From the NCBI GenBank assembly GCA_965204375.1, contig OZ241986.1:5472001-5536000 (forward strand): a DNA stretch of 64,000 bases, read 5' to 3'. Positions 22,172 to 41,999 of the stretch are shown here, in pieces. This DNA comes from Candidatus Latescibacterota bacterium (GTDB lineage Bacteria; Latescibacterota; UBA2968). The notes beneath the pieces are model-generated. The model saw nothing but the letters and a program-made list of their open reading frames with translations. It had not been told where the DNA came from and searched no databases. Made by a program: the position numbers and the translations under genes. How positions within the stretch are numbered: position 1 is the first letter of the stretch; each line of letters opens with the position of its first letter.

Positions 22172-22209
22172 TAACCATTCAATGATTACAGGTCAAGTGG
22201 AGCGAGTGT

Positions 22210-23676: not shown

Positions 23677-23737
23677 GGCTTTTGATTCTCATCCGCTATC
23701 TGTCTATATTGTGGTATTAGACAAAGGAGAGATTCCC

Positions 23738-23968
23738 ATGCGAAAACAAATTATTCAATATACTTCGCCCATTGATGCACTGGTTGCAGTGACAAAGCGG
23801 TTGAGTACCTATGAGAGTCGGCAGCAGATGGACTCGGAGGAGTTCTTTGACCAGTACAGCCGGGGACAACTGTCAGATGATATTGTATTTGTAGAGTGGG
23901 CAAACGATTATCGCCACTATTTAGAACTCCGTCAAAAATTAGAGAAAATCCTGCCCGATGTTGCATGA
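23738..23968 (+). CDS. Small antitoxin-like protein (TumA-like)
   Basis: AAGGAG RBS; LSTYESRQQMDSEEFFDQYSRGQL.D...FVEWA..Y pattern recalled from partners of DUF6516 toxins. Confidence 0.55.
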   Translation: MRKQIIQYTSPIDALVAVTKRLSTYESRQQMDSEEFFDQYSRGQLSDDIVFVEWANDYRHYLELRQKLEKILPDVA

Positions 23969-24032
23969 GATTCTATCCGATTACTTAGAGAAGGTGACGC
24001 AGGCTATTCTTCAGTGCAGCGATGCTTATGTT
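23958..24032 (+). pseudogene. 5' remnant of a DUF6516/TumE-like toxin
   Basis: ATG overlapping the antitoxin end; MLHEILSDYLEKVTQAILQCSDAYV, then runs into the cupin RBS. Confidence 0.45.
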
Positions 24033-24052
24033 GATAGCGCGATGGAGGTGTT

Positions 24053-24526
24053 ATGGCAAAAAATAAGGATTGGCGCAATCAGGGGGTGCGGGTGGTGACG
24101 GGTGACCAGTTGGATTTTAATACGCCGCAGACGCCGGGGATGACGCGGGCGGCTGCGATTAATCGCGCGAGTGCGGGGGCTGAGAAGTTGTGGGCGGGTA
24201 CGGTTGAGATTCATCCGAATGCAAAGACTGGCGCGCATCACCACGGGGCGCTGGAGAGTGTGATTTATGTGGTGAGCGGCAAGGCGCGCATGCGTTGGGG
24301 AGATCAGTTGGAGTATGTGGCAGAGGCGGGTCCGGGTGATTTTATTTATGTGCCGCCTTATGTGCCGCATCAGGAGATCAATGCCAGCGCAGATGAGCCT
24401 CTGGAGTGCGTGCTGGTGCGCAGCGATCAAGAGCCTGTGGTTGTGAATCTGGATATTCCGGTTGTTGAAGAGCCTGAGAAGGTGTATTGGGTCGATCCGA
24501 TACACTCGGATCCGAGAGATGATTGA
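24053..24526 (+). CDS. Cupin domain protein (RmlC-like)
   Basis: AHHHGALE and GDFIYVPPYVPHQE cupin motifs. Confidence 0.85.
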   Translation: MAKNKDWRNQGVRVVTGDQLDFNTPQTPGMTRAAAINRASAGAEKLWAGTVEIHPNAKTGAHHHGALESVIYVVSGKARMRWGDQLEYVAEAGPGDFIYVPPYVPHQEINASADEPLECVLVRSDQEPVVVNLDIPVVEEPEKVYWVDPIHSDPRDD

Positions 24527-24536
24527 GAGGTAGTTT

Positions 24537-27500
24537 ATGGAAGATCGATTTTTTGAACATCCCATTCTCAATTCTCCCTACGGCTATCCAATGCGACATT
24601 GGGAACTCGACGATCAGGGTCAGCCAACGCAGCGGATTGTTGAAAGCCGTCGGCGTGTAGATTTTATTACGCCTATTCCAAAGCCGAAGAGACGCGGGGC
24701 ATCGAAGCGGCAGCAGCAGATTGTCTTTAATGAGGGTAAGGGACTATCTACTGAGGATCAGCAGTACGATGTTACGGCGATGGTAAATGAGATTCGACGG
24801 CATGTTGATGGGTGGAGAAGTTTGCCCAATCCCAATGATTGGCGTGTGACGCCTGAAACCGCGCGTTTGCTCGAGCATTGGCGAAACCATCAATTTAGCG
24901 ATATTCGTCCGTTTTTCTGCCAGATTGAGGCGGTTGAGACAGCCATTTATCTGACTGAGGTTGCGCCGAATTTGGGGCAGTTGGGAAGGCGTTTAAGGGA
25001 TCACCTTGCCAATGCCAATAGTGACGCCAACCCGGAACTTATGCGCCTGGCCCTGAAGATGGCTACTGGCGCGGGCAAGACAACTGTTATGGCGATGATC
25101 ATTGCCTGGCAGACTATCAATGCGGTGAGGCATCCCAATAGCAGAAGGTTCTCGCGGGGGTTCTTGGTCATGACGCCCGGCATTACGATTAGAGATCGCC
25201 TGCGCGTGCTTTTGCCCAATGATCCGGATAGCTACTATGCGCATCGGGAATTGGTGCCGCAAGATATGCTCGGCGACCTCGACCGTGCCAAGATTGTCAT
25301 TACCAACTACCACGCGCTGAGAAGGCGCGAAAGAATAGAGATTTCCAGAGGGGGTAGAGGACTCCTGCAAGGGCGGGGACCCGCTCTCAATACGCTGGAG
25401 ACCGAGGGACAGATGATTCAGCGGGTTATGCCTGAGCTTATGGGCATCAGAAATATCAATGTGCTCAACGACGAGGGACACCACTGCTACCGGGAGAAGG
25501 TGGAAAAAGACGATGAAGGACGGTTAACAGGAGACGATCTGCAAGAGGCAAATAAGAATAACGAGGCCGCTCGTGTGTGGATTTCAGGGCTTGAGATGGT
25601 CAAGCGCAAGCTGGGTATCAGACAAGTTATAGATTTGTCAGCGACGCCCTTTTTTCTTCGTGGGTCGGGCTATGCCGAGGGGACGCTGTTCCCGTGGACG
25701 GTGAGCGATTTTTCGCTGATGGACGCGATTGAGTGTGGTATTGTCAAACTACCGCGTGTGCCCGTGGCTGACAATATACCCGGTGGAGATATGCCCAAGT
25801 TCCGCAATTTGTGGGAACACATTGGCACCGATATGCCCAGAGGAGGACGCCGCACAACAAATAATCTCGATCCTTTAAGCCTGCCCGTACCGTTGCAGAC
25901 CGCACTGGAAGCTCTCTATGGTCACTATGAGAAGACTGACGCATTGTGGGAAGAAGGCAAAGTGCCCGTTCCGCCCTGTTTCATTATAGTTTGTAATAAC
26001 ACCTCGTCCTCAAAGCTGGTCTATGATTACATATCGGGTTTTTACCGCGAGAATGAAGATGGTTCGAAGATGCTGGAGAATGGACGCTTGCCGCTGTTTC
26101 GCAACTTCGACGAGGTTGGTGACCGCCTCCCCATTCCCCCTACTTTGCTGATAGATAGCGAACAACTGGAATCTGGCGACGCTCTGGACAAGAATTTCCA
26201 CAAGATGGCTTCCGATGAGATCGAACGCTTTCGCAGAGAGATTGTCGAGCGCACTGGCGATGTTCGCCAGGCCGAGAATATTACGGATCAGGATTTGCTC
26301 AGAGAAGTGATGAATACGGTGGGCAAAGAAGGCCGACTTGGTGAGTCTATTCGCTGTGTTGTATCAGTTTCCATGCTCACCGAGGGTTGGGATGCTAATA
26401 ATGTCACTCACGTCCTTGGCGTGCGGGCGTTTGGCACGCAACTTTTGTGCGAGCAGGTTATTGGCCGTGCGTTGCGCCGCCAGTCTTATGATTTGAACAC
26501 GGATGGTCTGTTTGATGTCGAATATGCCGATGTGCTGGGCATTCCGTTCGACTTCACTGCGAAGCCGGTCGTTGCGCCGCCGCAGCCACCTCGGGAGACT
26601 GTCCAGGTGAAGGCGGTTACGCCAGAGCGCGATGAGTGCGAGATTCGCTTTCCGCGTGTGGCAGGTTATCGGGTTGAGCTTCCGAGGGAGAAACTCAGGG
26701 CGGATTTTACCGATGATTCGACATTGATACTTACGCCCGAACTCGTTGGGCCAACCAATACGAGAAACGAGGGTATCATTGGTGAGGGAATCAATCTGAA
26801 TCTTGAGCGTCTGGAGTCTATGCGTCCGGCTGCGCTGGCGTTTCGCCTCACTAAGCATCTGGTCTATACGAAGTGGCGCGATTCGGGTGAGGAGCCATCG
26901 TTGAATTTGTTCGGTCAGTTCAAACGGATAACGAGCGAATGGCTGGATACTTGTCTCGTTTGCAAGGGCGGAACGTACCCGGCGCAGCTTGTGTACCAAG
27001 AACTGGCAGATATGGCTTGCGAGCGTATCAAAGACGCCATCAACCGCACACACGTTGGCGAGCGTCCTATCAAGGTTCTACTCGATTCTTACAACCCAAT
27101 GGGGTCAAGCAGGCATGTGAATTTCAGCACCTCCAAAACGAGGCGATGGCAGACCGATTCTCGCAAGTGCCACGTCAATTGGGTCGTTCTGGACAGCGAT
27201 TGGGAGGCCGAGTTTTGCCGCGTGGCTGAGTCTCATCCGAAGGTGCGGGCCTATGTGAAGAATCACAATTTGGGACTGGAGGTTCCTTATCGCTACGGTT
27301 CCAATACGCGCACGTACATTCCCGATTTCATCGTTCTGGTGGATGATGGGCAGGATGACCCCCTGCACCTTGTCGTCGAAATCAAGGGCTATCGCGGCGA
27401 GGATGCGAAGATAAAAAAAAGCACGATGGAGACCTATTGGGTCCCCGGTGTGAATGCGCTTAGAGAATATGGACGCTGGGTCTTTGCCGAGTTTACAGAT

Positions 27501-27683
27501 GTATATGAGATTGAAAAGGAGTTTAACACATTCATTGATCGCTTCAGTGTCAGCGCAACAGGCACGCAGCCACGGGACGCTATGACTTCTAATTTCAAAG
27601 ATTTACTGGCATCCTGCCCGATTGACGAGATTGATGTTGATCAGCTTCGTACACGCGAATTGCCACGCGAGATTGAGTTGTGA
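24537..27683 (+). CDS. Type III-like restriction endonuclease/helicase (Res subunit)
   Basis: KMATGAGKT, DEGHH, SAT, MLTEGWD, EQVIGRALRR helicase motifs; C-terminal YIPDF...VEIKG PD-(D/E)xK nuclease. Confidence 0.9.
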   Translation: MEDRFFEHPILNSPYGYPMRHWELDDQGQPTQRIVESRRRVDFITPIPKPKRRGASKRQQQIVFNEGKGLSTEDQQYDVTAMVNEIRRHVDGWRSLPNPNDWRVTPETARLLEHWRNHQFSDIRPFFCQIEAVETAIYLTEVAPNLGQLGRRLRDHLANANSDANPELMRLALKMATGAGKTTVMAMIIAWQTINAVRHPNSRRFSRGFLVMTPGITIRDRLRVLLPNDPDSYYAHRELVPQDMLGDLDRAKIVITNYHALRRRERIEISRGGRGLLQGRGPALNTLETEGQMIQRVMPELMGIRNINVLNDEGHHCYREKVEKDDEGRLTGDDLQEANKNNEAARVWISGLEMVKRKLGIRQVIDLSATPFFLRGSGYAEGTLFPWTVSDFSLMDAIECGIVKLPRVPVADNIPGGDMPKFRNLWEHIGTDMPRGGRRTTNNLDPLSLPVPLQTALEALYGHYEKTDALWEEGKVPVPPCFIIVCNNTSSSKLVYDYISGFYRENEDGSKMLENGRLPLFRNFDEVGDRLPIPPTLLIDSEQLESGDALDKNFHKMASDEIERFRREIVERTGDVRQAENITDQDLLREVMNTVGKEGRLGESIRCVVSVSMLTEGWDANNVTHVLGVRAFGTQLLCEQVIGRALRRQSYDLNTDGLFDVEYADVLGIPFDFTAKPVVAPPQPPRETVQVKAVTPERDECEIRFPRVAGYRVELPREKLRADFTDDSTLILTPELVGPTNTRNEGIIGEGINLNLERLESMRPAALAFRLTKHLVYTKWRDSGEEPSLNLFGQFKRITSEWLDTCLVCKGGTYPAQLVYQELADMACERIKDAINRTHVGERPIKVLLDSYNPMGSSRHVNFSTSKTRRWQTDSRKCHVNWVVLDSDWEAEFCRVAESHPKVRAYVKNHNLGLEVPYRYGSNTRTYIPDFIVLVDDGQDDPLHLVVEIKGYRGEDAKIKKSTMETYWVPGVNALREYGRWVFAEFTDVYEIEKEFNTFIDRFSVSATGTQPRDAMTSNFKDLLASCPIDEIDVDQLRTRELPREIEL

Positions 27684-27706
27684 TGTTCTTACAGCAGGAT
27701 AAATAG

Positions 27707-28819
27707 ATGCCAGCAGTAAAATACCATTATGGACACTTCCCACCCAAGAATCTCGATTGGTCGCGTTTGAGTCCGCTGATTGGCCCGGCCAGCTTAGCGT
27801 TGGGGGAGTTCAAAGGGCTTCTCGACGCGATACCGAATCCTCATGTTCTGCTTGCGCCGCTCACCGAGCAGGAAGCGGTATTGACCAGTCGGATAGAGGG
27901 TACGCAGGCGACGCTCAGTGAAGTTCTGCAGTACAAGGCAGAGGGAGATCGACCTGCTTTCTCAGAGCAGCGGGATGATATTCGGGAAATAGTGAACTAT
28001 CGTCAGGCAGTTCTACACGCTATTAATCGCATGGATACACTGCCTTTATGCGGTCGTTTGCTCAAGGAGGCGCACGCCATCTTGATGCGAAGTGTGCGGG
28101 GTAGAAACAAGGATCCCGGGAATTACAAAAGGACGCTCAATCTGATCGGAGCACCAGGCAGTACTGAGGAGACAGCTACCTTCATTCCGATTACGCCGGA
28201 TAAACTGGCGGATGGCATAACTGCCTGGGAGCAATTCCTTCACAGTAAGCAACCCGACCCCCTTGTTCAACTCGGACTGGTCCACGCGGAATTTGAGGCA
28301 TTGCATCCGTTTCTGGATGGGAATGGTCGTCTGGGCCGAATGCTGGTGCCGCTCTTTCTTTTTGAGCGAAAAATTCTCAACTCTCCGGATTTTTACATCA
28401 GCGAATATCTTGAGGCCCACCGGGAAGTGTATTACGAACGTCTGTTAGCCGTGTCGCGGGATGGCGACTGGACTGGTTGGTGCGTCTTTTTTCTGCAAGC
28501 ACTTGCTGCCCAGGCACTCGAAAACACGCGCAAGGCCCGTGCGATTATGAAGTTATACGAGGCGCGCAAGGTGTGGATTGCCGAAAAGGCCCGTTCCCGA
28601 TATGGCGTTGCTGCTCTCGATTTTATCTTTGGCCAACCTGTCTTCAGGGCATCCGATTTCGGCCAAATACAAGGTATTCCGAGATCGTCGGCTTCGAATA
28701 TATTGCGCAAAATTCGGGATGATCTATTAGTTGAAGTGATTCCCGCCTCGGGCCGGAAAGCCGCTATATACGCATATTCCGAGTTGCTTGATATTGCCGA
28801 AGGAAAGGGCGATTTTTAG
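27707..28819 (+). CDS. Fic family protein (class II, SoFic-like)
   Basis: HPFLDGNGRLGR catalytic motif; N-terminal inhibitory TSRIEG; HTH-like C-terminus. Confidence 0.9.
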   Translation: MPAVKYHYGHFPPKNLDWSRLSPLIGPASLALGEFKGLLDAIPNPHVLLAPLTEQEAVLTSRIEGTQATLSEVLQYKAEGDRPAFSEQRDDIREIVNYRQAVLHAINRMDTLPLCGRLLKEAHAILMRSVRGRNKDPGNYKRTLNLIGAPGSTEETATFIPITPDKLADGITAWEQFLHSKQPDPLVQLGLVHAEFEALHPFLDGNGRLGRMLVPLFLFERKILNSPDFYISEYLEAHREVYYERLLAVSRDGDWTGWCVFFLQALAAQALENTRKARAIMKLYEARKVWIAEKARSRYGVAALDFIFGQPVFRASDFGQIQGIPRSSASNILRKIRDDLLVEVIPASGRKAAIYAYSELLDIAEGKGDF

Positions 28820-28826
28820 TGTGAAT

Positions 28827-28897
28827 ATATTGGCAACAAAAAAGTTTGTTGCCAATATTGTTGGTTTTTTTAGCAACAAACTTTTTTGTTGCTAAAA
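28827..28897. repeat. Two palindromes that are also inverted copies of each other
   Basis: ATATTGGCAACAAA-AAAG-TTTGTTGCCAATAT and TTTTAGCAACAAA-CTTT-TTTGTTGCTAAAA. Confidence 0.85.
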
Positions 28898-28932
28898 TCT
28901 TAACCTCAAATAAGTACATCAGTATGGATTGA

Positions 28933-28995
28933 CCACTTGATGGAATTGATGTTGAGCAACTTCGTATGTGCGCATTACCGCGCGATGACGAATAG
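28933..28995 (+). pseudogene. Second copy of the antitoxin-like tail found at the Res C-terminus
   Basis: Reads PLDGIDVEQLRMCALPRDDE-stop versus Res end PIDEIDVDQLRTRELPREIEL-stop. Confidence 0.65.
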
Positions 28996-29064
28996 ATTTG
29001 ATCCGCAGCCGAGACCTACAGCAGATAGAGGCTTTGTAACTCCGACAATCAACGAGGAGACGGC

Positions 29065-30495
29065 ATGAAACTGAAAGGCGAGATCAATAAAGCGAAAGAA
29101 AGAGTTGCTGAGACGTTGAAAATAGGAAAACGAAAAGAAATAGAATGGGAAGAATTGTTGCAGATCTTGAAAGATATTTGTGAGACGTCTATAATAAGCG
29201 ATAGTAAATGGGATTTAGAATTAGGTCAAGAATTTATGTCAAAACATGAATTTAAAGACCATATTGGGGTTGAGTATAAACGTCCTAGAATACGCGACAA
29301 AAAAATTTTTCCAGGGCTTAACAATATTGTGTTCAAAAATCTGAACATAAAAAAAATAAACGATTCTTTCTTAAAAGAATACTTCGAAAATTGTACTCTT
29401 GTTCATGGAGGTCGTATATATTTTGGCTTGCGATTTGAAAGGTGTCATTTTGATCTACGTTTAAACGGACTTATCCTTCCTTTGGCTGGCAATTACAGTT
29501 TTTATAGAAACAAGTTTAAATATAAAAATAAAGGTATAATAGGTCGTTGGTTATTTTGTTTTGGTGCTGGCAGTAAGATTTTTTTTGAAAAAAATGATTT
29601 TGATGACAATAGTATAGATATCGCTTGCAATTTTAAATATTTTGACAAGCATTTTGTAAAAAGAAAAATGACTTGGCAGCATATAGAAGCACGTTGTTTA
29701 GATGACAGTGCTTATTACGAAGCCATGATTCGTAAAACTCATGATCTACCAGACAGCGTTCCTTTGTTACTTACAAACACAGGCTATTCACGACATTTTG
29801 GGTTTGATGAGATTTGGTTTGTAGGTAATAGAAGAATTGATAAATTGTCGCTCCGCGCCAGTGGGGAATACACTTTTTTTAATGGAATAAATAGGATAAA
29901 AGAGTTGAATCTCGATGATGAATATACTCATTCTATAAATGAAAATGTAAAATTCTATTTTGGTCTTAGAGAAAAAATAAATCCTCGATTTAGCCATCCT
30001 CTTAGGCATCGACAATTATTTTTGACGCTGAAGAATTTTGCCGTCAAGAAACAGGATACTGATTTGCAAAGAGCTATGGATGTGCAACTCAATCAAATTG
30101 AGCACCATTTAGTAAAAGAGCAGTGGCGTTCAATTCATTTTTGGGAAATAGGTAAATGGATTAAACATTTTCAAGATCGTGTGCTTTGGTTTTGGAGAAA
30201 GTGGTCGGCTGACTATTATAGGTCGTGGTTGCGCCCTTTAGTGTGGGGGATAGTGGTATATTTTTCGTTTATTGCTTTTTCACTATTTTTTGTTGGTGAT
30301 TGGTCACTCCGTGATTTTTTAAGGTTGTCTCGACATGGATATAATTTCTTTTTTGTAGCGGACTTGTTAAGCAACGAGAACAAAATATCTTTTTCTTTTG
30401 ATAAATGCTTGCTGTATTTTTTTGATCTATGCCGTTTGGTTTTGGTGGGTATGTTGGGCTTTTCTATCAGGAGAGTTATCAGCAAAAAAGGATAA
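29065..30495 (+). CDS. Low-GC hypothetical protein with C-terminal membrane helices
   Basis: 476-aa ORF with GAGGAG RBS; F-x-N/R-x-x-F repeats; DYYRSWLRPL followed by hydrophobic segments. Confidence 0.7.
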   Translation: MKLKGEINKAKERVAETLKIGKRKEIEWEELLQILKDICETSIISDSKWDLELGQEFMSKHEFKDHIGVEYKRPRIRDKKIFPGLNNIVFKNLNIKKINDSFLKEYFENCTLVHGGRIYFGLRFERCHFDLRLNGLILPLAGNYSFYRNKFKYKNKGIIGRWLFCFGAGSKIFFEKNDFDDNSIDIACNFKYFDKHFVKRKMTWQHIEARCLDDSAYYEAMIRKTHDLPDSVPLLLTNTGYSRHFGFDEIWFVGNRRIDKLSLRASGEYTFFNGINRIKELNLDDEYTHSINENVKFYFGLREKINPRFSHPLRHRQLFLTLKNFAVKKQDTDLQRAMDVQLNQIEHHLVKEQWRSIHFWEIGKWIKHFQDRVLWFWRKWSADYYRSWLRPLVWGIVVYFSFIAFSLFFVGDWSLRDFLRLSRHGYNFFFVADLLSNENKISFSFDKCLLYFFDLCRLVLVGMLGFSIRRVISKKG

Positions 30496-30619
30496 GTCAT
30501 GAGGAATCAAAATCAAATAACGGTGTTCGATATACCTTGGTGCTTATTGATGTTCATACTCGTTTCGCTACGTAGTAGGCTGCGCCTGTACTGTGAATGC
30601 ATGGAGAAAGGATAGATAG

Positions 30620-33394
30620 ATGGCGAAACGAAGGATGCCCAAGCAGGTCGAAACGCTCACACACGACGAAGCAACTCGCCCGAATATCCCCACCGCTGAA
30701 CACCAGCCTCTCATGCGTGCAGAGGATCAGGCCCCTATCCCCTGTACCTATGCGCGACGCAACCGCGACCACGATCCCCAATTGGTGTGGCGCGGCAAGG
30801 ATGAGCAAGATTGGTCAGATTTGGTGGTGCAGGCACCGCCTCTGTACATTCAGGAGAAGGTCCATCCCAAGGTGCTGATTGACGATTTGGTGCGCCGAAG
30901 TGAGGAAGACGCTGCGGGTGAGTCAGGATTCCAGACGGACCTTTTCGCTGATTTCAATGGCTTGCCTTCGGAGGACGCCAGGACAGAGTTCTATCAGCAC
31001 GAGGCCAACTGGTCGAATCGCATGATTCTGGGCGATAGCTTGCAGGTGATGGCGTCGCTGGCTGAACGCGAAGGGTTACGGGGCAAGGTTCAGTGTATCT
31101 ACATCGATCCTCCCTACGGCATCAAGTTTAACTCTAACTTTCAGTGGTCAACCACCAGCCGCGATGTGAGAGATGGCAAGGCCGAGCATATTACCCGAGA
31201 TCCAGAGCAGGTGAAGGCGTTTCGGGATACATGGCGGGATGGGATTCATTCATACTTGACGTATCTGCGAGATAGACTGACAGTGGCCCGCGATCTGCTG
31301 ACGGAGAGCGGATCGGTCTTCGTGCAGATTGGGGATGAGAATGTGCATCGTGTGCGGGCTGTGATGGATGAGATGTTTGGGGAGGAGAATTTAGTTTCCT
31401 TCATTACAATTCAGAAGACCAGTAGCCAGACGGACAAGAACTTGTCTTCTGTGTCTGACTACCTGCTCTGGTTCGCTAAAGAAAAAGATTCGTTGAAGTT
31501 CAGAAGACCATTCCTGAAAAAAGGACCTAGCTTTTCAGCTGGAGGACAATATTCAAAACTGCAAATGCCTGACTTCAGCAGAATGCCAATGACCAAGGAA
31601 GAACGTGAAGATCGATCACAAATTCCTCCGAACGCACGAGTGTACCGACATGATACACTCACGTCGCAAAGTGGTAGCCAGACAACAGGGTTTAGGTTTT
31701 GTGATCAGGGTCGAGTATTCACTTCTGGTAGAGGATTTTGGAAGACCAATCTCTCTGGAATGACGCGGCTATCCCGGTCAATGAGGCTTGGACACGCGAG
31801 GAATAGTCTCAGCTACATTAGATTCATTGACGACTTCTCGGTTACACCAATTGGGAATCTTTGGACAGACACTTTGACTGGGTCATTTACTGAAGAAAAG
31901 GTATACGTTGTACAGACAGCCCAAAAGATTGTTCAACGCTGTATCCTCATGACCACCGATCCCGGCGACCTTGTTCTTGATCCCACATGTGGTTCTGGCA
32001 CTACCGCCTATGTCGCCGAGCAGTGGGGCCGTCGCTGGATTACCATTGATACCTCTCGTGTCGCACTTGCGCTGGCCCGTGCTCGGATTATGGGTGCTCG
32101 CTATCCCTACTACCTGTTGGCTGATAGTGTCGAGGGACAGTTGAAAGAGGCTGAGAGCGAGTGCAGGGCACCTTCGGAATCGCCAGCCTATGGCAATATC
32201 CGCCAGGGTTTCGTGTACGAGCGCGTGCCCCACATCATGCTTAAGGACATTGCCAATAACACTGAGATCGACGTGATTTGGGAAGCATTTCAGGAGAAAT
32301 TAGAGCCTTTGCGTCAGAAACTCAATGAGGTTCTTGAGAAGGAATGGGAGGAGTGGGAGATTCCGCGCGAGGCCGACGAGGATTGGTCAGAGAAGGTCAG
32401 GAAGCTACACGCCGATTGGTGGAAACAGCGCATCGCGCGACAAAAAGAGATTGACGCATCTATTGCGGCGAAGGCGGACTACGAATATCTATACGATAAT
32501 CCCTATGAGGATTCGCGGAAGGTGCGCGTTGCGGGTCCATTTACCGTCGAGAGCATTTCGCCCCATCGCGTGTTGGCAGTGGATGAGAACGACGAGTTTA
32601 TTGAAGACGTTGAGGAAGCGAAAACTGGCTACGATTTCGCCCAAGTGATTCTGGATAATCTGAAGACTGCGGGCGTCCAGCAGGCACACAAGGACGATCG
32701 GATTGCGTTTACCTACACTACTCCATGGCCAGGTGAGATGGTGTGCGCCGAGGGACGTTATGCCGAAGGTGCGACCGAGAAACGTGCGGGTATTTTCGTC
32801 GGGCCGGAGTTCGGTACTGTGTCTCGTCCTGACCTAGTGCAGGCTGCGCGGGAAGCTGCCGATGCGGGTTTTGATGTGTTGGTTGCTTGTGCCTTCAACT
32901 ACGACGCACACACGACGGATTTCGAGCGGTTGGGACGCATCCCGGTGCTCAAGGCGCGTATGAATGCCGACCTGCACATGGCCGATGATTTGAAGAACAC
33001 GGGCAAGGGAAATTTATTCGTTATTTTCGGTGAGCCGGATATCGACATACTGGATGTCGAAGATGGGCAGATACAGGTGAGAGTAAATGGGGTGGATGTG
33101 TTTCACCCAAATACGGGAGAGGTTCGTAGCGATGGCCCGGAGGGTATCGCTTGCTGGTTCATTGACACGGACTACAATGAGGAGAGTTTCTTTGTACGCC
33201 ACGCCTATTTTCTCGGTGCCAGCGATCCGTACAAATCGCTGAAGACCACGCTCAAGGCCGAGATCAACGAGGACGCCTGGGCCACTCTTAAAAGCGATAC
33301 TTCTCGACCCTTTGAGAAGCCCGCATCTGGGCGCATCGCCGTCAAGGTCATCAATCATCTGGGTGATGAGGTGATGAAGGTGTTCCGGGTGTGA
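30620..33394 (+). CDS. Type III-like DNA methyltransferase (Mod subunit, beta class)
   Basis: IYIDPPY (motif IV) before VLDPTCGSGTT (motif I); C-terminal IAVKVIN. Confidence 0.9.
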   Translation: MAKRRMPKQVETLTHDEATRPNIPTAEHQPLMRAEDQAPIPCTYARRNRDHDPQLVWRGKDEQDWSDLVVQAPPLYIQEKVHPKVLIDDLVRRSEEDAAGESGFQTDLFADFNGLPSEDARTEFYQHEANWSNRMILGDSLQVMASLAEREGLRGKVQCIYIDPPYGIKFNSNFQWSTTSRDVRDGKAEHITRDPEQVKAFRDTWRDGIHSYLTYLRDRLTVARDLLTESGSVFVQIGDENVHRVRAVMDEMFGEENLVSFITIQKTSSQTDKNLSSVSDYLLWFAKEKDSLKFRRPFLKKGPSFSAGGQYSKLQMPDFSRMPMTKEEREDRSQIPPNARVYRHDTLTSQSGSQTTGFRFCDQGRVFTSGRGFWKTNLSGMTRLSRSMRLGHARNSLSYIRFIDDFSVTPIGNLWTDTLTGSFTEEKVYVVQTAQKIVQRCILMTTDPGDLVLDPTCGSGTTAYVAEQWGRRWITIDTSRVALALARARIMGARYPYYLLADSVEGQLKEAESECRAPSESPAYGNIRQGFVYERVPHIMLKDIANNTEIDVIWEAFQEKLEPLRQKLNEVLEKEWEEWEIPREADEDWSEKVRKLHADWWKQRIARQKEIDASIAAKADYEYLYDNPYEDSRKVRVAGPFTVESISPHRVLAVDENDEFIEDVEEAKTGYDFAQVILDNLKTAGVQQAHKDDRIAFTYTTPWPGEMVCAEGRYAEGATEKRAGIFVGPEFGTVSRPDLVQAAREAADAGFDVLVACAFNYDAHTTDFERLGRIPVLKARMNADLHMADDLKNTGKGNLFVIFGEPDIDILDVEDGQIQVRVNGVDVFHPNTGEVRSDGPEGIACWFIDTDYNEESFFVRHAYFLGASDPYKSLKTTLKAEINEDAWATLKSDTSRPFEKPASGRIAVKVINHLGDEVMKVFRV

Positions 33395-33423
33395 GAGATT
33401 TTGCGGTAAAAAAGGTGCATGCG

Positions 33424-33480
33424 TTGCGAAAACAAGCGAAATAGGCTATTCTTGTTGACACAGAGAGCTGCGAGTAGGCA
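33424..33480 (+). promoter_or_regulatory. Repeated promoter element, copy 1
   Basis: TTGCGA-17-TATTCT inside AACAAG...CTTGTTGACACAGAGAG. Confidence 0.65.
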
Positions 33481-33565
33481 CGCGAGATTGCTCGTTCACG
33501 CGATATGGGTAGTCTTATTTTAATGTGCAAATTACCAGAAATGGCAAAATATAAAGGAGATTATA

Positions 33566-34414
33566 TTGAAGGAAAATATAACGACAAATAACGACAAATA
33601 TGAAAAAGCGATAAATGTCCTGGTAGAGGAAGAAGTATCACAGCCACTCTCTCCAATACAAAGAGTAGCTGCTAAGTTGTGGTTGAAAAATAATGACATC
33701 ATCGAAACAATTCAGAGTGTTCTTCGTGTATTCAGGTATGATGATAATCGTTTAAAAAAGATGACTGAGTGGGAATTAAAGAAAACTCTTTTAGAGGAAA
33801 TTGCCCAAGAATGTCATTATAAGTTTTTTACTTCACCATTAGGGCTATGGAGCAGGTCTGACCTCAAAAAGCGTATAGGTTGGATTGAAGCTGAAGAACT
33901 GAAAGGGGAAATTGCGCAATTAAACATGCGTAATCCCATTATACACCATGCAGATATGAAATCTACATTTGTGTATAATAAAAAAAGAGGTGTGATCCAC
34001 AAAAAGGAGATATTGGAAACCCTTTCTCGTATGACAAAATTGCACATATTGCTCCAGGCGATATCAAGATATACAAGACAAATAAGTAGTATTGCCAATT
34101 TCTCAATCTCATTGGAAACAACAGTTGATAAAAAAAATCTTATGTTAGTCTTTTTGCCTTTTATATGTGGATTTTTATCATGGAAACATAATGAATCTCG
34201 GGAAAGTTTAAGAGCAGGATGGGAAGCTTCTATCCTAAACCATGTTGTTGGCAAACGTATTGATGACCGTATAGAGGTGTTTGAAAAATACATAAAAGAA
34301 TACGGTGCAAAATATTCTGGTGAACCGATAGATGAGAGAACGGTTGTATTCGATGGAACCTACTCTGAACTCTGCACAAAGCTAAGCGAAGGATGTGAAG
34401 GAGCAGAACAATAG
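33566..34414 (+). CDS. Low-GC hypothetical protein with RxxxxH (HEPN-like) motif
   Basis: AAGGAG RBS then TTG; helical-looking 282 aa containing RNPIIH. Confidence 0.6.
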   Translation: MKENITTNNDKYEKAINVLVEEEVSQPLSPIQRVAAKLWLKNNDIIETIQSVLRVFRYDDNRLKKMTEWELKKTLLEEIAQECHYKFFTSPLGLWSRSDLKKRIGWIEAEELKGEIAQLNMRNPIIHHADMKSTFVYNKKRGVIHKKEILETLSRMTKLHILLQAISRYTRQISSIANFSISLETTVDKKNLMLVFLPFICGFLSWKHNESRESLRAGWEASILNHVVGKRIDDRIEVFEKYIKEYGAKYSGEPIDERTVVFDGTYSELCTKLSEGCEGAEQ

Positions 34415-34496
34415 TCTTATTGTCCACCGTACTGCGATGAAGATATAATCGTCTGTAAAGCATTAAGCACGCGAAGTTAAGGGAGCAGTTTCGGAT

Positions 34497-34706
34497 ATGG
34501 CCAAACACTATGTTGAGCACGAACACCAGATAGTATCTCACGAGGCCCTGTCGGAGGCTCGAGAAACACTGGCGGACTTTCTCCAGGGGCATGTCGGCGT
34601 TCTGCATAGTAGTGAATCTATCCCCGGTGGTGCTCGTATGTCGGAAGACAGCAGAAAAAAATTCGCTAAGGGACTACTTGAACAGCGTCAGCAGAGGAAA
34701 CGATGA
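34497..34706 (+). CDS. Small antitoxin-like protein, probably N-terminally truncated
   Basis: TLADFLQGHVGVLHSSESIPGGARMSED, homologous to 39076-39383; stop overlaps ATG of MILTDT (PIN-toxin-like start). Confidence 0.5.
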   Translation: MAKHYVEHEHQIVSHEALSEARETLADFLQGHVGVLHSSESIPGGARMSEDSRKKFAKGLLEQRQQRKR

Positions 34707-34726
34707 TCTTGACAGATACTGTCCTT

Positions 34727-34766
34727 ACTATTTGGAACTCTGTCAAAATAGGAGGAAATCCTGCCC
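34727..34766 (+). pseudogene. 3' fragment of the TumA-like gene
   Basis: 35 of 41 aligned positions match 23916-23956 (manual alignment). Confidence 0.75.
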
Positions 34767-34804
34767 TTTATAAACAAGCAGAAAAGGGCTATACTTGTTG
34801 ACAC
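34767..34804 (+). promoter_or_regulatory. Repeated promoter element, copy 2
   Basis: TTTATA-17-TATACT inside AACAAG...CTTGTTGACAC. Confidence 0.6.
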
Positions 34805-34853
34805 CTTTTCAAGTTTGCCAAATTTTTTGATCATCGAAGCTATGGAGATGGAC

Positions 34854-36200
34854 ATGAAAATAAAAGAAATAGAGATTCGATCCCTTTTCGGGTATTTTGA
34901 TCACAAGATACCCCTGAAGGAGGATGATCGTATTACTATAATCCACGGGCCGAATGGCGTCGGCAAGACAACGGTTCTCCAGCTTATCTCCGACCTCTTC
35001 AAACGGCAGTTTTTCTCATTGTTTGTTACGCCCTTTGACGACATTGTGGTGCGTTTCAATCCCAAAGGTAGCCTAACGGTTATTCGGTCTAAAGTGGGAA
35101 CGAAGAATTCCGCGAAGCTGAAATTGACCTACCGTGTTGGGAAAGAACGTACCGAGTACACGGTATCTCTAAGTGCACAGGAGAGACTCAGAAAAATCCC
35201 TTCCAGCGTCTTAGAACGAATAATTGACAATATAGAACGTGTTAGCCCATCTGAGTGGTACGATGAAATTACCGGCAGCATAATGTCTTTTGATGAGGTC
35301 ATTTTCCGTTATGGGAAATTCTTGCCTTCTGATATCCGCGAATCTATCATCTCGATTCCAGAAGAAATAGAAAGCCTATTAAAACAAATCAATATTGAGT
35401 TTGTTGAAACTCAGAGACTCTTCACAAGGCATATAGACGAAAGAGACGAAAAAGTGGTGTCTCGATATATAAGAAGAGATGTGTCTGTGGAGCTAATGAC
35501 GGTGGAGAAATACTCAGAAGATATGGCCTCCAGAATAGAGGAATGCCAAAGGGAATCCGGTGAGATGGGCGCATCTTTAGATAGCTCTTTTCCCCAACGA
35601 CTTTTGGAATTGCAACTTCCTGAGATAGCGACGGAAGAGCATATCTGGGAAGAATATAATAGCCAATCAGAATATAGAGACCGATTGATGCGTTCTGGTC
35701 TCATTGCTGCCGAAACGCCCGTTCCTCTCCCCTCGGAAGGTTTGGCAGAGCATGAGCGGAAGGTTTTATGGGCCTACCTCGAGGATGTGAAAAAGAAACT
35801 GCAAGTTTTTGATTGGCTTCTGCGTCGCGTGGAATTGTTCAGAGATATTGTGAACTCACGCTTCTTATATAAGAAGTTCAAAATAGATAGAGAGAAGGGT
35901 TTTATTTTTCAATCGGATCACGATAAGTCTATTGTGCCTCCGAGAGCACTATCTTCTGGAGAGCAGCATGAAATTGTCCTTACTTATGAACTTCTGTTCA
36001 TAGCACGGCCAGGGTCTCTCATTTTTATAGACGAACCTGAGTTGTCTCTTCATGTCATATGGAAGATGAAGTTTCTCGAGGATATTGCCAAGATATCGGA
36101 GCTGGCTGACCTTGATTTTCTTATAGCTACCCATTCTCCATCTATCATCAACGACCGGCGTGACCTCATGGTTAAACTGGCAGATAAAAATGGAAACTAA
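34854..36200 (+). CDS. ABC-type ATPase (AAA_15/AAA_21), PARIS AriA-like
   Basis: GPNGVGKT Walker A, LSSGEQ signature, IDEPELSLH Walker B, ATHS. Confidence 0.85.
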   Translation: MKIKEIEIRSLFGYFDHKIPLKEDDRITIIHGPNGVGKTTVLQLISDLFKRQFFSLFVTPFDDIVVRFNPKGSLTVIRSKVGTKNSAKLKLTYRVGKERTEYTVSLSAQERLRKIPSSVLERIIDNIERVSPSEWYDEITGSIMSFDEVIFRYGKFLPSDIRESIISIPEEIESLLKQINIEFVETQRLFTRHIDERDEKVVSRYIRRDVSVELMTVEKYSEDMASRIEECQRESGEMGASLDSSFPQRLLELQLPEIATEEHIWEEYNSQSEYRDRLMRSGLIAAETPVPLPSEGLAEHERKVLWAYLEDVKKKLQVFDWLLRRVELFRDIVNSRFLYKKFKIDREKGFIFQSDHDKSIVPPRALSSGEQHEIVLTYELLFIARPGSLIFIDEPELSLHVIWKMKFLEDIAKISELADLDFLIATHSPSIINDRRDLMVKLADKNGN

Positions 36201-36205
36201 GTATT

Positions 36206-36324
36206 ATGTATCAGACAGACAATACCATCGTTAATACAGTTCTTCTTGGACGTGACGCGTACAATGGGCCTGTGCTCCTCGTTGAAGGAGCCAATGATGT
36301 GAAATTTTTCCGCAAGTTTGTTAA
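36206..36324 (+). pseudogene. 5' part of DUF4435/TOPRIM gene (AriB-like), interrupted by IS
   Basis: MYQTDNTIVN...VLLVEGANDVKFFRKFV, TOPRIM VEGxxD motif, ends at the TTAA target. Confidence 0.85.
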
Positions 36325-38045
36325 CCTGAAAAATTCATAAAAAAGGTAGTTTCCTTATTCAAGTCATTGTATTATTATAGGTTATCACCATAACCATTAA
36401 ACAATAGACTTGGAGGAAACTACCATGGGGTCACAAGATAAACATCGCAAGGTTCCTTTGGCAAGCATTTTCGGCAAACGGCTTGACCTCGCCTTTGATG
36501 GGGGCATTCTCACCAGCGATAGCGGCGCGTTATTGCTTCGAGAAGTAGAGGCAAAATCTGGCATTTTAACACGCATGAGTGCTGCGATCAGGGATCGTCG
36601 GCATAAGAGTTATGTGAGGCACTCCGTCGCAGAGTTGGTCAAGCAACGGGTGTTCCAGATAGCCTGTGGGTATGAAGATGGCAATGATTGTGATGCCTTA
36701 CGCAGCGATCCGGGTATCAAGGCCGCCTGTGGTGTCTTGCCGCTTTCAGGTAAAGACTTGGGCAGTCAACCCACGATGAGCCGGTTTGAGAACCAGATCA
36801 GGCGAAGCGACTTGTATCGGATTGCCCGTGCCTTCCTCGATTGTTTTATCGCTTCGTATAAAAAGCCGCCCGAGGCGATCATCTTAGATATTGATGATAC
36901 ACAGGATACGGTTTATGGGACCCAGCAGTTGTCCCTATTCAATGGCTATTACAATGCCTACACCTATCAGCCCTTGCATATTTATGAGGGACAAACCGGT
37001 AAGTTGATCACTACGATATTGCGTCCCGGTATCCGTCCGACCGGCCAACAGATAGTCGCCATTATCAAGCGTTTGGTGGCCTATCTGCGTCAGGCTTGGC
37101 CTGATGTGGCGATCATCTTGCGGGGTGATGCCCACTTTTCTTGTCCGCAAGTCCATCACCTTTGTGAGACTGATGACCTGTATTTTATCTTAGGACAGAC
37201 CAGCAATGCCAAGCTTTGTGAGGCGGCACAACCCCTTATCGCGCAGGCCAAAAGGCTTTATGCACATACAAAGGAGGCCGTGCGTCTTTTTACCTCGTTT
37301 TCCTATCAGGCAAAGAGTTGGAACAAGGCACAACGCATCGTATGCAAGGTCGAAATCAGTGACCGAGGCCAAAACACACGCTTTGTCGTGACCAACCTGA
37401 AAAGTTCAATGGCGTCCTTTATCTATCAAAGCGTCTATTGTGCGCGCGGACAGATGGAAAACTTCATTAAAAATCACAAAACCTTTCTCCACTCTGACCG
37501 CACATCCTGTCACAGCTTTACTGCCAATCAGTTCCGCCTCTTTCTCCATTCTGCCGCCTATGTCTTGATACAGACATTGGCGCAAATAGGATTCAATGGC
37601 ACAAGGTGGATAAACGCGCAGGTCAATACCATTCAAAATCGCTTCCTCAAAGTCGCAGGACGCGTCTGTGAGTTGAAAACAAGGATCACCTTCCATCTGC
37701 CTGTGTCCTATCCTTTGCAACATCTGTATCATAAAATCCTACACAATCTGAAAAGGGCAGGACCTTAACCCAAAACGCAGGAGGGCAGAGATGGCAAGCA
37801 GAAGGCAGACAACATCACTGGCGCACACCGCCTTGTGCTGGGCAAAGACTCGGCAGGCAAGGGCAAGGGGGAACCTCTGCCCTTTTTGACTACCACAGGC
37901 ACGCTCTACCAATGACATTGACCTGTCAGAACCCGGTAAAAACACAATCGGGAGCAACAAAAACAGAAAAACACGGACAGAGGGCTTACAACATCGAAAT
38001 GATGACATAAATAGACTATTCAAAAACTTTCATGAATTAGTCGGG
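36325..38045 (+). mobile_element. IS1380-family insertion sequence, 1721 bp, TTAA target duplication
   Basis: Left end CCTGAAAAATTCATAAAA; reverse complement of right end CCCGACTAATTCATGAAA; TTAA at 36321-36324 and 38046-38049. Confidence 0.9.
36425..37768 (+). CDS. IS1380-family DDE transposase
   Basis: FDGGILTSDSG, GYEDGND, SQPTMSRFEN, LDIDDT, LRGDAHF, YCARGQMENFIK. Confidence 0.92.
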   Translation: MGSQDKHRKVPLASIFGKRLDLAFDGGILTSDSGALLLREVEAKSGILTRMSAAIRDRRHKSYVRHSVAELVKQRVFQIACGYEDGNDCDALRSDPGIKAACGVLPLSGKDLGSQPTMSRFENQIRRSDLYRIARAFLDCFIASYKKPPEAIILDIDDTQDTVYGTQQLSLFNGYYNAYTYQPLHIYEGQTGKLITTILRPGIRPTGQQIVAIIKRLVAYLRQAWPDVAIILRGDAHFSCPQVHHLCETDDLYFILGQTSNAKLCEAAQPLIAQAKRLYAHTKEAVRLFTSFSYQAKSWNKAQRIVCKVEISDRGQNTRFVVTNLKSSMASFIYQSVYCARGQMENFIKNHKTFLHSDRTSCHSFTANQFRLFLHSAAYVLIQTLAQIGFNGTRWINAQVNTIQNRFLKVAGRVCELKTRITFHLPVSYPLQHLYHKILHNLKRAGP

Positions 38046-38785
38046 TTAAAGACTCAGAGATGATAATTATTTCTGCTGAGAATAAGAAGAATGTCCTTGA
38101 CGCCGTTGAGATTCTTGAGTCAGATGGTATCGTACAGGGCTTCTTGGGAATCGTTGATGCAGACTTTGGGCATGTTGATGATTCGTTGCCGACTTCGCAG
38201 AATGTCGTTGTCACTGACGACCACGACGTAGAAATGATGATCATTAGAACTAAGGCATTTGATGAGGTCTTGAGTGAACTGGGGTCGAAATGTAAAATTC
38301 GCAAATTTCCAGATCGAGAGCGTGGAATACACGATACCTTGATGAAGAAAGCACTGGTAGTAGGACACCTCCGCCACTTATCTGTGACAGATGACCTTCG
38401 CTTGCGTTTTGAAGGATTGCGTTTTGAAGGCTTCATTAATCGTGATACGTTGAAAATGGATAAGAACAAAATGATAAATAACGTTTTTCAGTTAACAAAA
38501 AACCCACAATTAGAGATGGAAGATATTCGGAACAGATTTTTGAAGCTTATAGAAGATGAAAATGGCGATCCTTATCAAATCTGTTGTGGGCACGACTTTG
38601 TTGCGATCTTTGGCATCGCGTTGAGAAAGGTTATAGGAAGCAGGTCAAAGGAAGCTGCGAGTCCTGAAGCACTGGGTCGTACGCTACGCCTTGCGTACGA
38701 CAGCGAAGATTTTCGTAAAACCAAGCTCTACTCAGATGCGAAGAGTTGGTCTAAAAGGAATCAAGGCTACGATATTTTCAGGTAA
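38046..38785 (+). pseudogene. 3' part of DUF4435 gene (AriB-like)
   Basis: GIVDADF, TDDHDVEMM, GHDF; removing the IS and one TTAA gives in-frame ...KFVKDSEMIII..., 284 aa. Confidence 0.85.
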
Positions 38786-38800
38786 AAAGCTGTTCTAAAA

Positions 38801-38840
38801 AAAACAAATTATTCAATATAATTCGTCCATTGATGCGCTG
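38801..38840 (+). pseudogene. 5' fragment of the TumA-like gene
   Basis: 37/40 nt identical to 23743-23782 (manual alignment). Confidence 0.8.
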
Positions 38841-38864
38841 AATTCCGCGATGAAAAGGGGTGTG

Positions 38865-38922
38865 TTGCAAAAACAAGCGGAATGGGGCTATACTTGTTGA
38901 CACAGAGAGATGCGATTAGGCA
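38865..38922 (+). promoter_or_regulatory. Repeated promoter element, copy 3
   Basis: TTGCAA-18-TATACT inside AACAAG...CTTGTTGACACAGAGAG. Confidence 0.65.
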
Positions 38923-39075
38923 AGATCGACTCATCGGTTTGTATCTGTATATTTGTGTGCATTACAAGACCCATCTGTGGACGCATGCTCAATGGCTAAG
39001 CAATAACAATCGTCCTGAATTTACAATGTGAATTGGGTATTATGCGAAAACACATCACGATTAAGGAGACGTTCA

Positions 39076-39383
39076 ATAATTATTACGCTTACTCCTGATA
39101 TCGAGCAGGCGTTGGCCGATCAGGCGCATAAACTGGGAACCACGCCCGAAAACTCGCTCTCGACAGTCTGCGGGAGCGTTTCGCGCCGGAGTTGGCTTGT
39201 GACGCACAGTCGGAGGCCGAAAAAAAAAGAATGCTGGCTGAGTTTTTGCGCGATCACGTCGGCGTTCTGAACAGCAGTGAACACGTTCCTGGCGGTGCTC
39301 GCATGTCGGAGGACACTGGCAGGAAGTTCACCGAGATACTGATCAAAAAGCATCGGCGAAGATCGCAATGGCAGGATGGTTGA
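39076..39383 (+). pseudogene. Antitoxin-like pseudogene (lost start codon, frameshift)
   Basis: AAGGAG RBS then ATA instead of ATG; IITLTPDIEQALADQAHKLGTTPE, 1-nt deletion in an A run, then LALDSLRERF...LAEFLRDHVGVLNSSEHVPGGARMSED. Confidence 0.65.
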
Positions 39384-39404
39384 TTATCTACGATAAGAGG
39401 TGAT

Positions 39405-40307: not shown

Positions 40308-40318
40308 GAAGTGTGAAG
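40287..40318 (+). repeat. AAGTG(A/T)G heptamer repeat overlapping the stop codon
   Basis: GAAGTGAGAAGTGTGAAGTGAGAAGTGTGAAG. Confidence 0.75.
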
Positions 40319-40353
40319 GTGCGGGGAGTACTTCAAAGAAAAGGAGAACGAAG

Positions 40354-41214: not shown

Positions 41215-41230
41215 AAGACTGAGGAGTCCC

Positions 41231-41992: not shown

Positions 41993-41999
41993 GGAGTGT

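Follow-up and report, generated by a model that had tools for sequence, protein, structure and literature searches.

How does a bacterial chromosome come to carry a row of unrelated defence genes whose borders are marked by the same few short sequences? We addressed this question for positions 24,537-39,394 of a 64-kb window (the whole stretch of DNA analysed here) from the complete 6.34-Mb chromosome of an uncultured marine bacterium, a Candidatus Latescibacterota metagenome-assembled genome (MAG; labelled G000 in comparisons). In this island, the Res and Mod genes of a restriction-modification (RM) operon, a Fic gene, two orphan open reading frames (ORF476 and ORF282) and an ATPase-DUF4435 gene pair alternate with repeated parts, namely tail B and its copy B', a promoter-like element P (P1 to P3), two antitoxin copies (A and A') and two fragments of the antitoxin gene tumA. 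The initial annotation had proposed that cargo is gained and swapped by integron-like recombination between these parts, each gene arriving behind a ready promoter, with tandem duplication and decay as the alternative. Our comparisons point to a different origin: with a probability of roughly 0.7, the island is a mosaic hotspot in which a Res/Mod operon with two variable positions was remodelled by homologous and illegitimate recombination between alleles, followed by later deletions and the insertion of an IS1380-family element.

Genes of the region were called from an ORF listing combined with repeat finding and composition profiling, proteins were compared with Pfam, PADLOC and NCBIfam, and repeats were sought by sensitive self-BLAST of positions 22000-42000. 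For relatives, a DNA search of 40 genomes, 20 of them from the same genus (G-labels), was followed by BLAST comparison of the loci. The Res family was also scanned across phyla, where at least 595 relatives passed a tblastn check and 78 loci were kept (L-labels). Four metagenome runs (X1, X2, X7 and X9) were examined as contigs, from which rare variants are dropped; uncovered parts in X1 and X2 were scored as absent only where one contig joins across them. The layout given in the initial annotation held for every listed gene and, by self-BLAST, for every repeated part, each of which was found at its expected position.

The island is flanked by a cupin gene on the left and a dehydrogenase gene on the right. 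Comparison of the 20 same-genus genomes revealed an empty site, with a cupin-dehydrogenase gap of 15 nt, in eight of them and six other contents in another eight, the remaining four being unresolved. The site holds GmrSD alone in G013 and G014, part of P with GmrSD in G008, P-A'-GmrSD in G015 and P-A'-X in G004, X being a PIN-like toxin. In G012, a 75-nt Res stub is followed by two DndB-like genes, a Mod 3' stub and P-A-X, and in G020 and G006 the island is present without Fic and ORF476 and with a DUF4435 gene free of the insertion sequence (IS). Counting that of the window, eight site states were found across the 16 resolved same-genus genomes and the window. Defence and toxin-antitoxin (TA) genes dominate these contents (RM, SoFic, AriA/AriB-like, GmrSD, DndB-like, PIN and TumA), and with its shared core flanks the site is a chromosomal defence hotspot. 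Cargo content is not fixed across relatives, as had been predicted. In trees of both flanks, G000 grouped with genomes that have an empty site or other contents and stood apart from the clade of G020 and G006 (support 100/99); the content of the island therefore does not simply follow descent. As a separate observation, the DGQHR/DndB-like pair of G012 (L024 2901-5717) replaces the Res...Mod interior and includes one protein with a HEPN_Swt1 domain, leaving a 52-nt Mod stub.

The backbone of the island is formed by Res and Mod, which by their family scores belong to the BPTD_3080-type (Type III-like) RM systems, with putative restriction and methylation activity; a literature search retrieved no papers for BPTD_3080. 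Res DNA is 93% identical in G020 and G006. At other sites of the same genus, the interval between Res and Mod held different cargo in all eight loci compared, the types being PIN, MNT-HepT, a Schlafen/AlbA_2-HATPase_c_4 protein, an SDH-type protease, DUF1640-like proteins and IS elements, and the genes downstream of Mod likewise differed among these eight. The same two positions vary across many phyla. Among the 64 loci in Res-to-Mod order, 21 have no cargo and 43 carry at least 472 nt between the two genes, most often a PIN gene; in the cargo-free loci the Res tail measures 19-37 residues (24 in 13 of the 21) and Mod starts no more than 46 nt from the Res stop. Behind Mod, UvrD-like helicases, DUF5677, AAA_21 ATPases, SIR2, HNH, Schlafen-like and other genes were found.

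Further variation was seen within the operon itself. The centre of Mod (31395-31932), presumably the target-recognition region, is replaced in every other allele, in run X2 by 536 other letters. In L093, a Terriglobia MAG, the Res frame continues for 620 residues, and a separate gene of 689-708 aa follows Mod in 11 other loci, four of four scanned being UvrD-like helicases; this gene possibly provides the RM family with a third component that is sometimes fused to Res. An independent Res-tail-PIN-Fic order occurs in a Chloroflexota MAG (L045 12144-13913), where Fic matches over several frames and the contig end is near.

The recurring parts behind Mod could be traced to TA modules that are still whole in relatives. 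In G004, G015 and G012, whole A or A' encodes a protein of 107-110 aa, followed in G004 and G012 by the 136-aa X, whose start overlaps the antitoxin stop. X itself has no Pfam match; its relatives are 51-62% identical, and the closest of them (L117, L071 and L084; 61-62%) carry a PIN domain (PF01850, E 1e-8 to 8e-8). A VapBC-like overlapping pair A-X is present in G004 and G012, whereas the window has two broken A copies and has lost X. Whole A stands directly behind P in G012, at the place taken by ORF282 in the window. The two tumA fragments derive from a second module: the 5' fragment is homologous to the leader before GmrSD in G014, G013, G008, G020 and G006, and an 18-nt version of it follows X in G004 and G012, from which it appears that a TumA-TumE pair was once present at this site too.

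Beyond the island borders, an intact tumA gene is part of another small variable site (23677-24041), between a sulfatase gene and the cupin gene. Only ~31 codons of tumE are left behind it in the window; the same cut is seen in G000, G005, G020 and G006, and whole TumE is found in G012 (NCBIfam TumE, 204 bits). G008 keeps the first 66 of 76 TumA codons, G018 has 308 extra bp as at the sulfatase-cupin site of tumA carriers, and the pair is missing in G014, G013, G004, G015 and others. A likeness between the dehydrogenase leader and the tumE 5' end was rejected as too short to use.

Self-BLAST of the island gave 66% identity between A (34542-34692) and A' (39201-39357) over 158 nt (E 2e-13), 85% between P at 33410-33480 and 38853-38922, 91% and 88% between P2 (34772-34804) and these two, and 75% between tail B (27615-27670) and B' (28930-28985). 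Tandem duplication in place followed by decay would yield all three sets of copies, and it can point to the shared orientation of the direct repeats and to the order of the tumA fragments, tumA3' before tumA5', which would suit two tandem copies; for B and B' an old local duplicate is possible, the closest allele to B' in our data being that of G020/G006. However, A' and P3 are 92-93% identical to the same-site block of G004 and G015, which are without the island, and A is 79% identical to the A of G012 and only 66% to A'. The copies hence existed as separate alleles in different genomes and have so far grouped by allele across genomes, which argues for the joining of two alleles and against a duplicate made in place. 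In addition, the repeats border unrelated genes of differing guanine-cytosine (GC) content. We consider tandem duplication improbable.

Alignment of nine P copies revealed an invariant core, TGCGTTGCRAAAACAAGCGRAAT.GGCTAT, with divergence just past the -10 region. The sequence is sigma-70-like (-35 TTGCRA, -10 TATWCT), with a 29-nt imperfect palindrome in the spacer, and a consensus scan found two of the copies. Its 18-nt core occurs three times in the 6.34-Mb genome, always in the island, and the 33-nt version gave no match in 100 shuffles. Beyond this genome, the P pattern matched seven stretches among the genome contigs, six in this genus and one chance match in a Bathyarchaeia MAG, and a single chance match among the metagenome contigs, so that P is confined to this genus. 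Within the genus it stands ahead of five contents: A-X, A'-GmrSD, GmrSD, ORF282 and ATPase-DUF4435. P is probably a promoter/operator that still drives whatever lies downstream. P1 and P3 are most simply read as putative promoters native to two alleles of a single antitoxin operon, not as arrivals with different cargo.

Integrons combine an IntI recombinase with attC sites that fold as single strands, a fixed crossover point and a resident promoter. The island resembles them in its one-orientation array of unrelated single-gene cargo, in the putative resident promoter upstream and in the short sequences that recur at the boundaries. If P and the antitoxin parts were dedicated sites for a recombinase encoded elsewhere, this would also account for the five contents behind P, for the palindrome in P and the very good conservation of the element, and for the segment between the P1 and P2 cores being missing exactly where one locus, G014:C24, has a single hybrid P. 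The defining components are absent, however. No integrase family and, apart from the IS1380 transposase, no recombinase family was found among the 52 ORFs scanned in the window, and for integron integrase in the whole genome the best TIGR02249 score was 88.6 bits against a cut-off of 265, like that of 14 of 14 control genomes. Neither P1 (z 0.21) nor P3 (z -0.31) folds as a single strand, and the fold of P2 (z -2.3) pairs the tumA remnant with P and is not a hairpin site; Rfam gave no match within 22000-41000. P is limited to six true loci in one genus; its P1 and P3 copies come from two alleles of a single operon, and P2 is truncated. The island thus lacks IntI, folding attC-type sites and a fixed crossover, and its recurring sequences are gene remnants. 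We regard integron-like exchange as very unlikely.

The position of the breakpoints argues in the same direction. In G014:C24, Mod-P-ATPase-DUF4435 is followed by a second Mod end of ~50-63 nt and then by the same gene as in G004:1.95M. The breakpoints of G012 lie inside P and at the A/tumA3' border, and homology to G004 and G015 starts at the tumA5'/P3 border. Within P, breaks were found after GGCTAT (G012, G008) and after GACAC (two downstream variants), and P2 begins at AAACAAG; the Mod-end remnants measure 28, ~52 (G012) and ~50-63 nt (G014:C24). This variation in remnant length and breakpoint speaks against a site-specific mechanism. The swap of Fic and ORF476 (G000) against PIN (G020) breaks at the Res stop and Mod start, outside any repeat and not at tail B/B'. 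In run X1, a tumA end is joined to Mod position 33367 via 7 filler letters and the Mod stop to a tumA start via 27, and such filler points to illegitimate joining. Run X2 has a different Res tail before the same Fic-B'-ORF476 and leads from Mod directly into a tumA-like piece and the A' end, the part from ORF282 to DUF4435 being uncovered. Several independent cases, tail B' after Fic among them, show a replacement after which a short, diverged copy of the end of the upstream gene remains.

The claims of the initial annotation therefore fared unequally. Its statements that no integrase and no attC-like site are visible stand, as does the differing base composition of the cargo, seen in the low GC content of ORF476, ORF282 and the ATPase pair relative to backbone and flanks. 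The expected coincidence of breakpoints with the recurring parts holds for the many that touch P, the A/tumA3' border or the tumA5'/P3 border, and fails in that positions within the parts vary and the Fic/ORF476 swap lies at the Res stop and Mod start. Exchange of the integron type, lacking recombinase, folding sites and a fixed crossover point, is not upheld, and neither is a ready promoter for each cargo, P1 and P3 being native to two alleles of one operon and P2 partial, nor the tandem duplication, given that A' is closer to the G004/G015 block than to A. The PIN fragment at 28990-29040, the X codons at 34703-34726 and the partial nature of P2 had been overlooked.

A further and very unlikely alternative, a single integrative mobile element that spans all 15 kb and has lost its integrase, could draw on a site between two core genes that are adjacent in eight relatives and on the mixed composition, but there is no integrase, tRNA target or direct repeat at the two ends, relatives carry subsets or remnants and not one unit that is present or absent, the Res/Mod backbone sits at other loci without the same ends, and the 40 relatives showed no such 15-kb unit with defined ends, either at a different site or beside an integrase.

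According to the mosaic reading that we favour, a widely transferred BPTD_3080-type Res/Mod operon would form the backbone of a chromosomal anti-phage hotspot between two core genes, with accessory genes turning over at two positions, in the Res-Mod interval and immediately behind Mod. The first occupants would have been TA modules: a Res-fused VapB-like peptide with a FitB-like PIN, the VapB-like antitoxin A with the PIN-like toxin X read from P, and TumA-TumE. Later cargo (SoFic, ORF476, ORF282 and a PARIS-like ATPase-DUF4435 pair, and GmrSD in relatives) would have landed in or over these modules, the recurring parts being leftovers of the modules and of P. The window itself may have arisen when a G020-like island (cupin-Res...DUF4435-tumA5') was joined at the tumA5'/P border to a G004-like P-A'-X-dehydrogenase segment, after which the toxin would have been lost by deletion, A' would have been frameshifted and the DUF4435 gene would have received the IS1380 element. 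Such states could result from homologous crossovers within conserved anchors (Res, the conserved Mod 3' end, P and the flanking core genes) in combination with illegitimate joins between alleles with different cargo, since events of this kind would add cargo to the array and leave behind, in diverged form, a short copy of the end of the anchor. In this view the parts seem to be traces of earlier events, made up of pseudogene remnants and a putative resident promoter, and not a site dedicated to exchange.

Several points weigh against this interpretation. The recombination events were read from sequence traces and none was observed directly; the comparison genomes are relatives and not independent samples, and the metagenome contigs are likewise relatives, at a likeness of at least 85%. 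Runs X7 and X9, which contain the window at 100%, showed no alternative joints at the parts, as far as contigs reveal them. The order tumA3'...ATPase pair...tumA5', common to G000, G020 and G006, is the reverse of a simple insertion and requires two tumA copies or a circular intermediate. The piece of the upstream gene's 3' end that is retained at four junctions might reflect a site preference rather than ascertainment. Promoter-like matches are not more frequent in the island (29) than in shuffles (22.4 +/- 5.5), and the high conservation of P, with P1 identical to the G014:C24 copy at 87 of 90 positions and the adjoining coding DNA at only ~75%, could indicate a special role beyond that of a promoter.

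As a by-product, the comparison of Res ends bears on the hypothesis that immunity and suicide are coupled. Homology of Res to the eight other same-genus loci ends at 27508-27515, and the last 15-60 residues vary. Among the 71 loci with an intact Res end, the window-type tail motif (...FKELL...P...L.R....RD..F) was found in 19. A FitB-like PIN gene (PDB 2h1o, E 5e-17) starts exactly at the Res stop in 15 of these, it overlaps the stop by 10 nt in a sixteenth (L077), and the other three have an NYN-domain gene instead; such a PIN was found in none of the 52 other loci, an association between related loci that does not amount to a statistical test. The window retains the tail and has lost the partner. 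Behind Fic, B' is 77% identical to the Res tail of G020 (E 4e-9), and the fragment at 28990-29040 is 82% identical to codons ~47-63 of the G020 PIN gene (E 2e-10), stops breaking both reading frames.

Comparison of a second tail type of 125-137 residues (L071, L084, L117 and L106) with free-standing ORFs, which sit between a short-tailed Res and an X-like PIN in six other loci, revealed 40-50% identity (E 1e-11 to 1e-18); this shows by sequence that the second tail type is a gene fusion and thus a fused antitoxin. For the tail of the window the same origin is probable. Its motif, which we regard as typical for the C-termini of VapB/Phd-type antitoxins, recurs at the end of a free-standing, RHH-like ORF of 98 residues in G019 (53% over 32 residues, E 1.2e-7). 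Searches with the tail-B peptide matched only itself and B' in the genome (tblastn), nothing among PDB sequences and, in a search of 5.8 billion proteins for shorter ones, three proteins, two with a Res endonuclease domain and a 77-residue piece with no domain call; the link to antitoxins stems solely from the compared loci. Complex prediction for the G020 PIN with the last 69 Res residues gave a median score of 0.24, the mark being 0.34, which speaks neither for nor against binding.

Taken together, these data allow a bolder proposal, which we put forward tentatively and at odds well below even: that the Res tail is a working antitoxin holding a PIN or PIN-like toxin inactive, that the Res-Mod junction is a 'toxin socket', and that P is the resident promoter of a recombinase-free array. 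If this were true, phage damage to Res or its inhibition would free the toxin, a hard-wired coupling of immunity and suicide; guarded toxins would be exchanged at the junction, P would express whatever lands behind Mod, and the window would represent a late state in which SoFic and ORF476 displaced the PIN gene and the tail was kept.

The cargo itself comprises named and orphan genes (Table 1). The Fic gene carries Fic_N and Fic domains with the motif HPFLDGNGRLGR at aa 200-211 and is absent in G020 and G006; it scored 173.1 bits against the NF046030 equivalog model, below the cut-off of 550, and is therefore a relative of SoFic and not an equivalog. The hairpin pair behind it is unique in the genome and could serve as a terminator in both directions or mark where the Fic insert ends. 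Neither orphan matched Pfam, PADLOC or NCBIfam. ORF476 had no relative among the genome contigs searched and five homologues in 5.8 billion proteins; an atlas likeness of 0.93 to pentapeptide/ion-channel-like proteins serves as a lead only. ORF282 had seven matches among 1.84 billion representatives. The GC content is 0.31-0.37 for ORF476, 0.35-0.37 for ORF282 and 0.40-0.45 for the ATPase gene, against 0.50-0.57 for Res, Mod and the flanks.

PARIS is recognised by an ABC-type ATPase gene beside a DUF4435/Toprim gene. The island pair, named via the PADLOC models, resembles AriA-AriB at the domain level, in the order of ABC-type ATPase and DUF4435 gene, and differs from an intact PARIS in that the DUF4435 gene is split by IS1380. 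This element inserted after about codon 39 with the target duplication GTTAA, occurs at six other places of the genome at 100% identity, its ends being found 12 and 17 times, and is recent. In G006, a related IS (81%; L015 10695-12145) sits inside ORF282 and not in DUF4435. Over the whole window, the + strand has a strong positive GC skew and carries nearly all genes. Outside the island, a HicB-family antitoxin-like gene (20345-20686, - strand) in a low-GC patch (0.43) of a PhyH dioxygenase cluster gives the impression of a further small TA insertion, here among metabolic genes.

Table 1 Features of the island and its flanks, in order of position in the window.
Feature	Position	Strand	Evidence or remark
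TumA antitoxin gene, intact, outside the island	23738..23968	+	NF045776, 139.3 bits (cut-off 100); reference for both tumA fragments
Cupin gene, core left flank	24053..24526	+	Pfam Cupin_2
Res, BPTD_3080-family restriction endonuclease	24537..27683	+	NF046055, 1348.8 bits (cut-off 800); Pfam ResIII, RE_endonuc
Variable Res C-terminal tail, including tail B (27615-27670)	27515..27683	+	Antitoxin-like peptide, probably fused to Res; PIN partner gone here
SoFic-like Fic gene, cargo of the Res-Mod slot	27707..28819	+	PADLOC SoFic PDLC03963, E 2.4e-101, positions 9-358 of 361
Two tandem strong hairpins after Fic, terminator-like	28821..28904		Fold z -7.2; 0 of 200 shuffles fold as well
Tail B' (28930-28985) and PIN-gene fragment (28990-29040)	28930..29040	+	Decayed second copy of Res tail and PIN
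ORF476, low-GC orphan cargo, C-terminal hydrophobic helices	29065..30495	+	No family match
Mod subunit	30620..33394	+	N6_N4_Mtase PF01555, E 3.9e-34; PADLOC MTase_III PDLC03632, 1453 bits
P1, last 27 nt of Mod and promoter-like element	33368..33480	+	-35 TTGCGA, -10 TATTCT; palindrome AACAAG..ATAGGCTAT..CTTGTT between
ORF282, low-GC orphan cargo	33566..34414	+	Occupies the expected place of the antitoxin A 5' end
A, C-terminal 69 codons of VapB-like antitoxin, N-terminal DNA-binding part lost	34497..34706	+	79% to whole A of G012 (108 aa)
Lost PIN-like toxin X, first 8 codons (MILTDTVL)	34703..34726	+	X of G012/G004 starts MTLTDTGPL
tumA 3' fragment, codons ~61-74	34727..34766	+	85% to 23916-23956; also in G020
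P2, partial P before the ATPase gene: palindrome and -10 only, -35 part replaced	34772..34804	+	Self-BLAST, alignment
AriA-like ABC-type ATPase (AAA_21/AAA_15)	34815..36200	+	Pfam; PADLOC AriA, E 6.6e-24
DUF4435/AriB-like gene, 5' piece (~39 codons)	36206..36324	+	Uninterrupted in G020
IS1380-family insertion sequence	36325..38044	+	Transposase 36410-37768; NF033539, E 3e-116; DDE_Tnp_1_4
DUF4435/AriB-like gene, 3' piece	38045..38785	+	DUF4435, E 2.9e-11; PADLOC AriB, E 9.6e-19
tumA 5' fragment, codons ~2-16	38801..38844	+	38801-38861 80% to 23743-23801
P3, full P, putative native promoter region of the A' operon	38845..38922	+	92-93% to P-A' block behind the cupin gene in G004/G015
A', second antitoxin allele, frameshifted, toxin deleted	39028..39383	+	Two overlapping frames against whole A' (107-110 aa) of G015, G004
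3-hydroxyisobutyrate-type dehydrogenase gene, core right flank	39405..40307	+	Adjacent to the cupin gene in 8 relatives

The island belongs to a known kind, the chromosomal defence hotspot without mobility genes. Passages on hotspots in Oliveira et al. 2017 (PMC5635113) describe many that lack mobile elements, with recombination at flanking core genes, and chromosomal defence hotspots flanked by core genes are treated in parts of Hochhauser et al. 2023 (PMC10121019) and Johnson et al. 2023 (PMC10250203). As far as these passages extend, the likeness lies in a defence content that changes between one fixed pair of core genes, a site that is empty in many relatives, the lack of mobility genes of its own and turnover via recombination in conserved flanks. 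The present case differs from those described there in that the conserved 'flank' consists in part of a defence operon (Res, Mod), which has variable positions of its own, and in that short remnants of previous occupants make the history of the site legible.

The decay of the TA modules also has a parallel. Erosion of chromosomal TA systems by deletion and toxin pseudogenisation is described in the relevant part of Belot et al. 2026 (PMC13617665), and toxin loss, pseudogenisation, orphan antitoxins and a high-turnover location recur in our island. According to the same part of that work, such TA systems rarely cluster with defence systems, whereas here they are interleaved with them and appear as landing places of new cargo.

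For the Res tail, the closest precedent is the proposal, in the section of Makarova et al. 2012 (PMC3506569) on this topic, that toxins are embedded in RM loci and inhibited by immunity proteins. PrrC-EcoprrI and the coupling of immunity and suicide, as presented in that section, share with our loci toxin genes inside restriction operons without a typical antitoxin and an immunity protein that is itself proposed to restrain the toxin. In contrast to that example, an antitoxin-derived tail with a predicted role is fused in frame to Res, the toxin is a PIN nuclease and not an anticodon nuclease, and in the window a Fic gene has replaced the PIN gene. Literature searches, at the level of listings, found no paper on Res-antitoxin fusions or on PIN in Type III RM. 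Judged by sequence, the antitoxin tail joined in frame to Res seems to give the idea outlined in PMC3506569 a concrete form.

What had looked like a mobile-cassette system can thus be read as the history of the assembly of a defence island, in which new cargo repeatedly lands in TA modules inside or behind a restriction operon and short remnants record the steps. The two low-GC orphans, ORF476 and ORF282, are flagged as candidate defence genes. For the BPTD_3080-type family, with its at least 595 relatives across phyla, the findings suggest that the Res/Mod operon acts as a scaffold with two variable positions. Finally, a Res protein that often ends in an antitoxin-derived tail, with a PIN gene right behind it, would provide a testable molecular link for the question raised in 2012, in that section of PMC3506569, of whether immunity proteins serve as antitoxins for the toxins embedded in their loci.

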